A DNA stretch of 64,000 bases from Escherichia phage ECO103 4-12-1: the sequence record OR844650, one strand, 5' to 3'. The translations under genes and the position numbers were made by a program. Numbering within the stretch: the first letter of the stretch is position 1; each line of letters starts with the position of its first letter. Below the pieces are notes generated by a model. The model was not told the DNA's origin. It saw only the letters and a list, made by a program, of their open reading frames with translations, and did not search any database. Of the stretch, positions 41,953 through 45,141 are shown in pieces.

Positions 41953-44616
41953 ATGGCAGATACAAGTAAAAAGTATGCACAACAGCAGTTGGGTCGTTTT
42001 GACCCATCTTATCCGCAGTTAGCAACTGTTATGGATAACAGAGATCCAACTAAATCAGGAAAACTGAAAGTTTGGATACAAGGTTCTCAAAGTGATAAAA
42101 ACTCAAAAGAATCATGGATAGAAGCATCTTACATGTCTCCTTTTGCTGGTAAAACACCAGGTATTCCAAGTGCTGATGCATATGGTCAATATCCAAAAGG
42201 ATACGGTTTTTGGGCAGTACCACCAGACGTAGGGTGTACAGTTGTTGTAATTTTTGCACAAGCCCGTACATTCCAAGCATATTGGATTGGTTGTGTATAT
42301 GACCAGCGTATGAATACTATGGTTCCAGGTATGGCAACTGAAGTAAGTAATTATGGTGGAACTGATATGCCACTTCCTGTTACTGACTATGATCGTAACA
42401 CTATCACTACCGATATGCAAGACAAATATGCTAACGTTCCAATTATCGCAGGTCTTAAAAAGCAAAACCTTTTATATGACGAAGAAGCTGGGTTGGCGAA
42501 TCGTAGTAGTACTCGACAAACCACCAGTACTGTATATGGTATGTCTTCGCCACGTGGTAATAGTTTTATTATTGATGATGGATATACTGAAGAGGAATTA
42601 ACAGCACCAACGTGGGATCAAGACCCAGATGGATATCAAGATACACAATTTAATAACCCAGTAAACGATACACGTGTTGGTTCTCGTAAAAATGAAGGTG
42701 TCGTAATAAAAACACGTAGTGGTGCACAACTTCTTTTATCAGAAGCTACTGGTGATGTTCTTTTAATTAACCGTGATGGCACTGCACGTATAAAATTCAC
42801 TGGTGAAGGTGATATTGACATGCACTGTGATAAGAATATTAATATTCGTGCTGGTCAAGATATTAATATTACTGCTGGACGTTCATATAATATTGAAACC
42901 GGACAAGATTTCAATGCACGAGTTGGTGCAAATACTAAATTAGATCTAATTGGTGCTCTTGATGCAAAAGTTGGTGGACAAGTTGTTGTTAATTCTGGGG
43001 CAGACCTTCGTTTAGTTACTGCTGCATCATTACGTATGCAAAGTGGTAGCAGTACTGATATTACGGCTGGTTCAAATGCTTCTATTTCTGCCGCAACATC
43101 TGCAAACCTAATTGGATCATCATCAGCAATTATTAGTGGTGGTGGTCAAACATTAACAGTTAATAGTGGTGGTAATAGCGGTACTGCTGAATTTACTGCA
43201 CCAAACTTTAGAACACCATCTGCTGGTCTTAATGAACACATTCATGATATTGCTGCATGGGTTAACGCTGAAAATCATGGTAGTTATGTTGAACCACCAA
43301 GACAAGGTGGTGGAAGTGGTTCTAGTGAATCACCAGTACAACCACAACCAGCAAATGATGTATCACCAGAATTACCCGTAGCACAAGACACTGAAGCTGT
43401 TCAGTTTGTTAACTATACATCAGAAACTGAACAAGTTCAATCACAAGATTTGATGACATCTGATCCTGGGATGACTGGATATAGTATTACATATGAAGGT
43501 TTACATATGTTAATGCCATGTAGCGGTACTATTCGACAATATGGTTACTGGGGGAAAGGTGTTCCAACACAAAGTGGAGGAAAGGCAGACCGTTCAGGTT
43601 GGGAAATACAATGTAAAGGTGATGTAGTTGCACCAGATGGTGGTGTGGTAGTAATTACTAATGGTGCTCTTTTAATACAACATAAGTCTGGATATAAATC
43701 TATTTTTTATAATATTCAATCTGATTTATTAAACAAAGATGTTGTTCAAAAAGGTCAAGTTGTTGGAAAAGCAAATGGTGTCATACAGTTTGAAATTCGT
43801 GTTACATCAGCAAATGTTCTTGGATTCAGTGGTTCTGTTGACCCAGGATTATTTTATGCTTCACAAACAGGAACAGGGTCTGATGCGGCGAATAAAACAT
43901 TAATTGGTGGTCAAGCAACTAATCAATCTGCTCCAAAAGCAGTTGTACAACCTTCAGTTGATAGTGATGAATTGGTAGTTACAACAAAAATCAAAACGAT
44001 AGGTACTGGATATTCTCAACGTGGTTCTCGTCATGTGCCTCGTAGAAGAAGAACACAGAGAAGTGGAGCTTCAACAACTCCGGTGGAGCAACCTACCTAT
44101 AATATTGGAAATGTTGATAAAACTGCAATCGATTGGAAAGTTGTTCCAGGTGATGCACAATTTATTTCTGAATTAAAAGAATATGAAGGTACATTACAAT
44201 ACCAACAAGCAAAAGGATATTATCGTAATGGTAAATTCTGGCGTTATTTGGATAGTCGTGGGTATCCAACTATTGGTTATGGTCACTTGATTATTAGTGG
44301 TGAAAACTTTTCAGATGGAATAACTGAACAGCAAGCCAACGATATGTTAGTTCGTGATAGTAGTAAAGCTATATATGATGCTAAATCAATTTATGCTTCA
44401 TATAACATGAAAACACCTTATTTGGCTCAACAAGTACTATGCCAAATGGTATTCCAGATGGGTAAAGGTGGGGTACTTAAATTTAAAACTATGTTGTCTG
44501 AATTAGCTAAAGGTAATTATAAACAAGCTGCTGCTCAAATACGTAATTCAGCTTGGTATCGCCAAACTACTCGCCGTGCTGAGTTAATGGCTCGTCGTTT
44601 AGAGGCATGTCAATAA
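41953..44616 (+). CDS. baseplate central spike (gp5/VgrG-like) with beta-helix repeats, M23-like segment and C-terminal GH24 lysozyme domain
   Basis: N-terminal OB-like region; Gly-rich beta-helix repeats; C-terminal TIGYGHLI...VFQMGKGGVLKFK...WYRQT lysozyme block. Confidence 0.8.
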   Translation: MADTSKKYAQQQLGRFDPSYPQLATVMDNRDPTKSGKLKVWIQGSQSDKNSKESWIEASYMSPFAGKTPGIPSADAYGQYPKGYGFWAVPPDVGCTVVVIFAQARTFQAYWIGCVYDQRMNTMVPGMATEVSNYGGTDMPLPVTDYDRNTITTDMQDKYANVPIIAGLKKQNLLYDEEAGLANRSSTRQTTSTVYGMSSPRGNSFIIDDGYTEEELTAPTWDQDPDGYQDTQFNNPVNDTRVGSRKNEGVVIKTRSGAQLLLSEATGDVLLINRDGTARIKFTGEGDIDMHCDKNINIRAGQDINITAGRSYNIETGQDFNARVGANTKLDLIGALDAKVGGQVVVNSGADLRLVTAASLRMQSGSSTDITAGSNASISAATSANLIGSSSAIISGGGQTLTVNSGGNSGTAEFTAPNFRTPSAGLNEHIHDIAAWVNAENHGSYVEPPRQGGGSGSSESPVQPQPANDVSPELPVAQDTEAVQFVNYTSETEQVQSQDLMTSDPGMTGYSITYEGLHMLMPCSGTIRQYGYWGKGVPTQSGGKADRSGWEIQCKGDVVAPDGGVVVITNGALLIQHKSGYKSIFYNIQSDLLNKDVVQKGQVVGKANGVIQFEIRVTSANVLGFSGSVDPGLFYASQTGTGSDAANKTLIGGQATNQSAPKAVVQPSVDSDELVVTTKIKTIGTGYSQRGSRHVPRRRRTQRSGASTTPVEQPTYNIGNVDKTAIDWKVVPGDAQFISELKEYEGTLQYQQAKGYYRNGKFWRYLDSRGYPTIGYGHLIISGENFSDGITEQQANDMLVRDSSKAIYDAKSIYASYNMKTPYLAQQVLCQMVFQMGKGGVLKFKTMLSELAKGNYKQAAAQIRNSAWYRQTTRRAELMARRLEACQ

Positions 44617-44628
44617 ATATTTTAGTAC

Positions 44629-44636
44629 TATAAATA
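44629..44636 (+). promoter_or_regulatory. late promoter TATAAATA
   Basis: 17 nt upstream of the lysozyme ATG. Confidence 0.6.
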
Positions 44637-44652
44637 AAACGAGGATATCTTT

Positions 44653-45141
44653 ATGAGTAAATGGGAAATTAAAAATACAGATGAGCAATTTTTTAAGGAA
44701 ATTAAAGAATTTGAAGGAACTATTGCTTATCAGAAAAAACTTGGTTATTTTAAAAATGATAAGTTTTGGGTATATAAAGACAGCTTAGGTCTTGATACAA
44801 TTGGCTATGGTCACCTAGTTTTACCTGGTGAAAATTTCAAGAATGGTTTAACAGAAGCACAAGCTGACCAACTTCTTCTTAAAGATGCTCAAACTGCGTA
44901 CAATGATGCAAAATCAATTTATGAACAATTTGGTATGACCGCACCTATACAGGTTCAACGTGTATTATGGTTGATGGTATTCCAGATGGGCAAAACCAAA
45001 GTTTTAAAATTTAAAAAAGCAATGACCGCATTAGGTAAGGCTGATTATAAAACTGCTGGTAAGGAATTGCGTGATAGTACATGGTATAAACAAACCACTT
45101 CAAGAGCGGAAAAGATGGCACGTATTGTTGAATCCGTATAA
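44653..45141 (+). CDS. GH24 lysozyme (T4 e-type endolysin)
   Basis: DTIGYGHLV, LMVFQMGKTKVLKFK and WYKQTTSRAEKM match T4 lysozyme blocks. Confidence 0.9.
   Translation: MSKWEIKNTDEQFFKEIKEFEGTIAYQKKLGYFKNDKFWVYKDSLGLDTIGYGHLVLPGENFKNGLTEAQADQLLLKDAQTAYNDAKSIYEQFGMTAPIQVQRVLWLMVFQMGKTKVLKFKKAMTALGKADYKTAGKELRDSTWYKQTTSRAEKMARIVESV

Follow-up and report, generated by a model that had tools for sequence, protein, structure and literature searches.

In the 64,000-nt stretch of Escherichia phage ECO103 4-12-1 analyzed here (sequence record OR844650, hereafter the window), the gene for an 887-residue central baseplate spike is followed directly by the gene for a 162-residue lysozyme, and the spike itself ends in a lysozyme domain. 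How and when did two lysozyme modules come to lie side by side, and what does each of them do? The original prediction, made from the sequence alone, was a recent tandem duplication or domain capture, with a second and possibly degenerate enzymatic module inside the spike. Our overall reading, which we consider probable, is that the spike delivers a cargo of a catalytically dead LytM domain and a muramidase, and that the free paralog is an old duplicate acting as a late lysozyme in cell lysis.

Two related lysozyme modules

41953..44616, + strand, central baseplate spike gene, 887 residues, 100% identical to phAPEC6 gp241
44125..44613, + strand, spike-borne GH24 (T4-type) lysozyme domain, residues 725–887, catalytic E745, D767 and T773
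44653..45141, + strand, standalone GH24 lysozyme gene, 162 residues, PF00959 at 36.6 bits

Both open reading frames (ORFs) were confirmed by an ORF listing. The blocks said to be shared by the spike C-terminus and the product of the next gene are borne out by a pairwise BLASTP alignment, which displays 83 identities in 158 residues (53%), no gaps and an E value of 3e-57. It spans spike residues 728–885 and standalone residues 4–161. The Pfam model Phage_lysozyme (PF00959) scores 45.2 bits on the spike and 36.6 bits on the standalone protein, against a curated cut-off of 22.3, and both modules have the T4 lysozyme fold. The catalytic triad of the standalone protein is E21, D43 and T49, equivalent to Glu11, Asp20 and Thr26 of T4 lysozyme (T4L). 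No third lysozyme copy is present within the window. NCBIfam returned only GTA-endolysin matches, all of them sub-threshold, and a BFVD fold search added nothing decisive.

The two copies are about 51–53% identical to each other, versus about 30% to T4L. In a joint alignment with T4L, both exhibit a common 13-residue insertion between the catalytic Glu and Asp, together with a common 15-residue deletion. The same lineage-specific insertion is found in gp532 of phage 121Q (locus 16192–17118). This protein is a third GH24 paralog of the phage group, 36% identical to the free copy, and carries a hydrophobic N-terminal segment and a LysM domain in addition to GH24.

It might be supposed that the spike captured one lysozyme while the phage gained another from elsewhere, so that their adjacency is coincidental. 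The moderate identity would fit such an origin, as would the unresolved deep nodes of the extended tree described below, in which one metagenomic free copy (contig P0005) is very divergent. However, both copies and gp532 share the insertion and the deletion relative to T4L, and neither copy is nearly as close to any lysozyme from outside the family as it is to the other. The start of the free copy also coincides with the spike copy's domain boundary, and it directly follows the spike gene on the 3′ side; a partial tandem duplication would produce just this arrangement. We regard independent acquisition as highly unlikely; judged from their sequences, the modules are paralogous lysozymes that originated inside this phage lineage.

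Conservation of the pair

The window comes from an Asteriusvirus-type (PBECO4/121Q) jumbo myophage. Its nucleotide identity is 99.9% to Escherichia phages slurp01 and SP27, 99.7–99.8% to PBECO4 and its close relatives, and 95% to 121Q; slurp01, SP27, PBECO4 and 121Q are Asteriusvirus jumbo phages of about 350 kb. Full-length homologs of the spike were found in 71 phage records, from phages of Escherichia, Klebsiella, Salmonella, Erwinia, Serratia, Yersinia, Cronobacter, Pectobacterium, Xanthomonas and Vibrio, and 13 loci among these were examined in detail.

The order of spike, 162-residue lysozyme and gp25 is present in 12 of the 13 loci, the exception being the Vibrio phage. The arrangement is kept in RaK2, fHe-Yen9-04, Serratia BF, GAP32, CBB, XaC1, Hallingskeid, EJP2, Munch, A4, UE-S1 and fEgEco12, and is found in Alcyoneusvirus, Eneladusvirus, Mimasvirus and unclassified relatives. 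The free lysozyme also adjoins the spike in the metagenomic contigs P0004, P0005 and P0006; it is absent from contigs P0008 and P0009 and from the locus of Vibrio phage 2.275.O. Over the family, all 17 members have the spike copy, and 13 of 16 genomes have the free one. A second GH24 domain was not detected anywhere in the whole genome of Vibrio phage 2.275.O at E ≤ 1e-5, and most enterobacterial relatives listed have three.

The Vibrio phage and P0009 also do without the virion protein of about 700–800 residues that precedes the spike in all other members. Directly 5′ of their spike gene lies a small ORF, annotated as gp53-like in the Vibrio phage and of 108 residues in P0009; the regions concerned are 3229–6565 of the Vibrio phage locus and 71–3526 of the P0009 contig.

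The Glu/Asp/Thr triad is retained in all 13 standalone copies. The Thr26 equivalent varies only in spike-borne copies, where it is Ser in XaC1, Asp in Hallingskeid and Munch, Ile in P0006 and Val in P0009; the P0009 spike lysozyme differs at all three positions of the triad. The chemistry of some spike lysozymes may therefore differ, or their activity may be lost. The standalone protein exhibits 96% identity to LysUE1 of phage UE-S1, and the LysUE1 cloning primer matches the start codon region in the window. LysUE1 was purified and found to be muralytic on permeabilised E. coli (PMC12805682).

Age and origin of the duplication

The two copies in the window are 58.6% identical in nucleotide sequence, with a synonymous divergence (dS) of about 1.8, which is saturated, and the longest exact run in register is 17 nt. 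In a neighbour-joining tree of 21 family copies, the spike copies group at 75% and the free copies at 93% without XaC1, and the Vibrio copy is excluded at 92%. Copies from the same genome are never sisters in the cultured phages (0 of 1000 bootstraps for each), also when the metagenomic sequences are included. Addition of the latter makes the deep nodes of the lysozyme tree collapse.

A duplication is upheld, while its predicted recency is contradicted by the low nucleotide identity, the saturated dS, the presence of the pair across genera and the clustering of the copies by type. A recent tandem duplication, or an ongoing gene conversion of the module within this phage, could be read from the adjacent, co-oriented copies lying in the same reading frame in the window. 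Yet that shared frame is not kept in the relatives, three in-frame stops separate the two ORFs, the pair persists across several genera and metagenomic relatives, and support for sisterhood within a genome is 0%. Together with the divergence of the copies, this leaves a recent event with practically no probability. A fusion of spike and lysozyme by read-through or frameshifting was considered as well, and is ruled out by the same three stops and the unconserved frame relation.

The spike copy is universal in the family and the free copy begins at its domain boundary just 3′ of it; the simplest origin is therefore an ancient partial tandem duplication of the 3′ end of the spike gene. In a tree of the spike backbone, P0005, which has the free copy, and P0008, which does not, are sisters at 97–99%. 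The lineages without a free copy are therefore not monophyletic, and the free copy was either ancestral and lost at least two times, or gained once and lost once. Since deep resolution is lost with the metagenomic sequences, we make no claim for the placement of the duplication relative to the three lineages without a free copy.

Architecture of the spike

42019..42300, + strand, N-terminal OB-fold domain of the gp5/VgrG Phage_base_V type, residues 23–116, PF04717 at 29.8 bits versus a cut-off of 23.8
42706..43212, + strand, triple-stranded beta-helix region, VgrG/gp5C-like, about residues 252–420, PF10106 (DUF2345) at 34.7 bits versus 30.7
43237..43245, + strand, H429-I-H431, an HxH just after the beta-helix, putative histidine cage (Apex-type metal site or trimer clamp)
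43501..43929, + strand, degenerate LytM/M23-fold domain, residues 517–659, with R547..E551, N587 and V610-I-Q612
43936..44109, + strand, predicted disordered linker, residues 662–719, model confidence (pLDDT) below 50

From N- to C-terminus the spike comprises the OB fold, the beta-helix, an invariant HxH, the dead LytM domain, the disordered linker and the GH24 lysozyme. A search of the Protein Data Bank (PDB) with the family profile matched VgrG1 of P. aeruginosa (4uhv, E 4e-6), other VgrGs of type VI secretion systems (T6SS) and phage central spikes, all via the helix. H429-I-H431 is identical in 18 of 18 family sequences, and the stretch around it is the least constrained part of the spike, with a ratio of nonsynonymous to synonymous substitution (dN/dS) of 0.1–0.3. 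From the HxH to the C-terminus of the spike there are 456 residues. The alignment of the HxH region to VgrG1 4uhv proved to be an artefact, in which the C-terminal His-tag is matched, and was given no weight in considering an Apex domain.

A usable AlphaFold model of the monomer was obtained from an alignment of eight sequences, the matches from the representative library, with a mean pLDDT of 69.5; a single-sequence model (mean pLDDT 33) was discarded. The pLDDT is 74–91 in the M23-like domain (residues 517–659) and 65–91 in the lysozyme domain. The linker holds a conserved basic motif, QRGSRHVPRRRR, at residues 689–700 (nt 44017–44052). In the window and 10 relatives a near-invariant form, IG(S/T)GY(S/A)QRGS(R/K)HxPRR, is present just before the lysozyme, and the linker around it is fast-evolving. 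This motif could be a processing site, comparable to the maturation cleavage of T4 gp5, or a regulatory or binding element.

The spike of phAPEC6, gp241, was detected in virions by mass spectrometry (MS) (PMC7247149), and so was the CBB spike, CBB_240 (PMC5259590). The OB fold, the beta-helix, the presence in phAPEC6 virions and a baseplate context of gp53-, gp25- and gp6-like neighbours mark the 887-residue protein as the central spike. The gene order of the baseplate module is gp53-like, a 749-residue virion protein, the 887-residue spike, the 162-residue lysozyme, gp25-like and gp6-like, with the outer two genes at the following positions.

39364–39678, gp53-like gene of the baseplate module
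45654–49115, gp6-like gene of the baseplate module

An ORF of 3333 residues lies downstream of the gp6-like gene, at 49165–59166. It is probably the 382-kDa virion protein gp245 reported for phAPEC6.

A LytM domain without its catalytic residues

The second module was predicted to resemble an M23 peptidase with its His-x-His positions substituted, and in the window these positions are indeed V610-I-Q612. By profile hidden Markov model (HMM) and multiple alignments, the HxGxD motif is replaced by R547-S-G-W-E551 and the catalytic His by N587. The HxxxD was placed by means of the conserved Gly together with the Pfam coordinates; an hmmsearch of the family profile against a LytM sequence aligned only 31 residues and did not cover it. 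In 18 family sequences no intact M23 catalytic residues were found on proper alignment (0 of 18 keep the catalytic and metal residues), and the substitutes vary between lineages.

The fold itself is that of M23/LytM, according to the profile matches and the eight-sequence model, a structure prediction having been proposed as the check. All 11 cultured orthologs match Pfam Peptidase_M23 below threshold (in the window 22.7 bits versus a cut-off of 28.7; best ortholog E 8e-7), and two metagenomic sequences, P0004 (30.1) and P0008 (33.4), pass the cut-off. In the PDB, the profile of the segment matches LasA (E 1e-4), zoocin A, SpoIIQ and DipM. A search with the M23-like segment and an 11-sequence profile against a protein database without this family yielded only two fragments. 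An exhaustive HMMER search of the segment against 1.84 billion representatives gave only about eight clusters, and all real matches are spike-sized with the same architecture. One match of that search, P0010 (1772 residues with HYR/PKD repeats), was rejected as a spurious repeat match.

The dN/dS of the LytM domain is 0.035 in the comparison with UE-S1 and 0.020 in that with fEgEco12. Elsewhere it is 0.03–0.06 in the lysozyme domains and 0.016–0.04 in the OB fold and helix region. The suggestion that the second module may be degenerate thus holds in one respect only: the catalytic and metal residues are lost, but the domain is not decaying, its dN/dS of 0.02–0.04 being as low as that of the lysozyme domains. 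Since the M23 residues are absent in 18 of 18 sequences, the segment is a degenerate LytM domain rather than an M23 peptidase; since their loss is accompanied by a low dN/dS, it is ancestrally dead but functionally constrained.

Could the domain still be an active peptidase that employs non-canonical residues? The strong purifying selection would agree with this, and an invariant His577 and Glu614 remain in the domain. With every canonical position replaced throughout the family, and by different residues in different lineages, we consider such an activity very improbable. A further idea rests on fold similarity to EnvC. A dead LytM domain at the tip of the spike might be a mimic of EnvC/NlpD, which after entry into the periplasm would bind and activate the host amidases AmiA, AmiB or AmiC or dock another hydrolase; we regard such a role as improbable.

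A probable late unit of lysozyme and gp25

44613..44619, + strand, ATAAATA late-promoter-like motif over the spike stop codon (TAA, 44614–44616), at the same place in 9 of 10 relatives
44629..44636, + strand, TATAAATA, a perfect match to the T4-type late promoter consensus, 16 nt before the standalone ATG
44641..44645, + strand, Shine-Dalgarno sequence GAGGA of the standalone lysozyme gene, read from the sequence
45157..45552, + strand, gp25-like baseplate wedge gene, second cistron of the lysozyme-gp25 unit, PF04965 at 35.1 bits
45557..45590, + strand, intrinsic-terminator-like hairpin (10-bp stem, UUCG loop) and T-run, closing the lysozyme-gp25 unit

The standalone copy was said to lie behind a late promoter motif of its own, and TATAAATA is present at 44629–44636. 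The window holds seven such sites (2647, 13919, 23865, 25074, 31035, 38590 and 44629), fewer than the mean of 10 in shuffled sequence. Six of the seven are intergenic though 92.6% of the window is coding, and most lie 16–47 nt upstream of an ORF on the same strand. It is this concentration in the roughly 7% of non-coding sequence that makes the motif meaningful despite a total below the shuffle mean. The pattern is consistent with selection against spurious late promoters inside genes.

Among the relatives compared, the full TATAAATA at this position is found in the window only. In RaK2 a separate perfect TATAAATA precedes the lysozyme gene by 44 nt, and that gene is 14 nt from gp25. The CBB study had independently put forward an ATAAATA late motif, with a gp55-like sigma factor, for CBB and GAP32; the sigma factor itself is reported for CBB only (PMC5259590). 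No terminator was found between the spike and lysozyme genes, and the gap between lysozyme and gp25 is 9–15 nt in all relatives. After the gp25 terminator hairpin a new motif, AATAAATA, follows in the window; in 10 of 10 relatives a hairpin and T-run after gp25 are succeeded by a fresh (T/G/A)ATAAATA before the gp6-like gene. The motifs, the short gap, the lack of a terminator behind the spike gene and the terminator behind gp25 together suggest that the free lysozyme and gp25 form a conserved bicistronic late unit.

In RaK2, four small hypothetical ORFs, two on each strand, lie between the spike and the standalone lysozyme (locus positions 5390–6883).

Proposed mechanism and the role of the free copy

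The homology, age, folds, residues, constraint and operon layout come from the present analysis, and the presence of the spike in virions and the activity of the free copy from the literature; the delivery mechanism, the role of the LytM domain and the part of the free copy in lysis are what we infer. The spike would be the trimeric central needle of the baseplate, docked in the hub by its N-terminal OB fold. Its VgrG-like beta-helix would form the needle, with the invariant HxH closing the helix. Beyond the HxH a Gly/Ser/Pro-rich linker is predicted to lead to the dead LytM domain, and a disordered basic linker from there to a lysozyme of the T4 type that appears catalytically competent. Sheath contraction would carry this C-terminal cargo at the needle tip through the outer membrane into the periplasm, where the spike lysozyme would cut glycan strands locally and let the tail tube pass the cell wall. 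For the dead LytM domain the most likely role is that of a peptidoglycan- or protein-binding, positioning or regulatory module, not of a peptidase.

The 162-residue gene, in the same model, would stem from the ancient duplication of the spike 3′ end and have been kept as an active, soluble, signal-less muramidase. Read from its sequence, the standalone protein has no signal peptide, no transmembrane segment and no hydrophobic N-terminus. It would be made late, from its own T4-type late promoter, in the two-gene unit with gp25. Most likely it is a cytoplasmic late lysozyme and not a stoichiometric component of the virion, reaching the wall for lysis via a holin or a membrane lesion, and it would work alongside a membrane-anchored LysM-GH24 endolysin candidate. 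That candidate is 121Q gp532, a possible SAR-like (signal-arrest-release) or membrane-tethered endolysin. The CBB study gave the endolysin role to this separate transmembrane-LysM-lysozyme protein (CBB_187 / 121Q gp532; PMC5259590). An Rz-like spanin is annotated about 8.5 kb from gp532 (7339–7713) and not adjacent to it.

The main competing explanation places the standalone lysozyme in the baseplate hub, as a structural or assembly component of low copy number, bound for example near gp25 or the spike. The gp25 operon favours it: synteny is strict, the gap to gp25 is 9–15 nt, promoter and terminator are shared in all relatives, and even in RaK2 the lysozyme, though four ORFs away from the spike, remains next to gp25. 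There is also a separate endolysin candidate, and proteins present in three copies can escape MS, as did the RaK2 spike itself in the virion analysis of that phage (PMC3622015). The proteomes disfavour it. The 162-residue protein is absent from the virion lists of phAPEC6 (PMC7247149) and CBB (PMC5259590), in both of which the three-copy spike was detected, and in Rak2-like phages, the CBB authors state, structural status is confirmed for the gp25-like protein and the spike alone (PMC5259590). Three lineages of the family moreover build the same baseplate module without a free lysozyme. We consider a structural or assembly role unlikely, but a serious contender.

Several points weigh against the scheme of a cargo-bearing spike and a free lysozyme used in lysis. 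The location of the 162-residue protein is judged from the virion lists of relatives, and small proteins of low copy number are often missed by shotgun MS. Its strictly conserved place by gp25 within the baseplate module would suit a structural or assembly role as well, and with a dedicated endolysin candidate a second lysis enzyme seems redundant. The perfect TATAAATA, only 16 nt from the ATG, would leave an unusually short leader. The structural model rests on only eight sequences (mean pLDDT 69.5) and is a monomer; the cage at the HxH, the trimeric state and the place of the cargo relative to the tip are putative. The trees are neighbour-joining trees on about 160 columns, with deep nodes unresolved.

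Comparison with known spikes

In T4, the lysozyme domain lies between the OB fold and the beta-helix of gp5, a PAAR protein caps the needle, and genes e and 5 are far apart. In the present phage, by contrast, the lysozyme is at the extreme C-terminus, behind the HxH and the dead LytM domain, and the next gene, apparently co-transcribed with gp25, encodes the free paralog. A difference from T4 gp5 was described for CBB_238/239/240 (PMC5259590).

The "evolved" VgrGs of the T6SS likewise combine an OB fold and beta-helix with an enzymatic cargo at the C-terminus, which sheath contraction delivers. VgrG-3 of Vibrio cholerae is an evolved VgrG with a peptidoglycan-degrading C-terminal domain. VgrGs also carry a gp27-like N-terminal part, whereas the phage spike has two cargo modules and the HxH. 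The phi29 tail-knob enzyme gp13, which Xiang et al. are said to have described in 2008, reportedly combines a lysozyme-like domain with a LytM/M23 endopeptidase domain whose M23 site is active. The enzyme content of gp13 is similar to that of the spike, but the domain order is reversed and it is not a spike. In layout the protein described here comes closer to the evolved T6SS VgrGs, and in enzyme content to phi29 gp13, than to T4 gp5. For the LytM module, the degenerate LytM domains of the amidase activators EnvC and NlpD, and those of DipM and SpoIIQ, are close known systems.

The iron-binding Apex domain in spikes of the P2 gpV type is recognised by a conserved HxH behind the beta-helix (bioRxiv 10.1101/2023.02.25.529910). 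Spikes like P2 gpV and phi92 gp138 have the same OB fold and beta-helix, with a universally conserved HxH right after the helix. In gpV the HxH is about 12 residues from the C-terminus and forms a sharp tip, whereas here 456 residues follow it. An internal HxH "Apex" with so long an extension might conceivably define a new class of cargo-bearing phage spikes, which we consider improbable.

Prior knowledge and significance

Much of this locus is already known. The sequences are public, and three lysozyme paralogs of RaK2 (ORF029, ORF073 and ORF078) were described in 2013, with 66% similarity between ORF073 and the lysozyme domain of ORF078, and with an 886-residue baseplate lysozyme of "very unusual domain composition" (PMC3622015). 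A possible central M23 domain of the spike was noted for CBB in 2017 (pfam01551, E 6.5e-4; PMC5259590), and the activity of the enzyme dates from 2025. The analysis adds to the literature the dating of the duplication, an ancestrally dead yet strongly constrained LytM domain, the internal HxH and the conserved lysozyme-gp25 unit.

The spike and standalone lysozyme genes are both annotated in public records, under inconsistent names. GenBank labels for the two include "nuclease subunit", "putative RNA polymerase sigma factor", "GH24 domain amidase", "N-acetylmuramoyl-L-alanine amidase" and "hypothetical"; the labels are inconsistent and sometimes wrong, for example in OQ708376.1, PQ390715.1 and OQ411014.1. 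We propose to annotate the locus as a central spike that has a GH24 lysozyme at its C-terminus and a non-catalytic LytM domain, and after it a soluble GH24 paralog, apparently co-transcribed with gp25.

These findings leave the current understanding unchanged. If the EnvC mimicry were true, the phage would combine its own muramidase with hijacked host amidases, by means of a virion-delivered activator of host autolysins. The results can be useful for structural work on the baseplates of Rak2-like jumbo phages or for the application of LysUE1-type enzymes. As with T4 gp5 and e, a spike lysozyme and its free paralog have both persisted over a very long time; the locus presents a second, independent case of this theme, here in a different, VgrG-like layout with C-terminal cargo.

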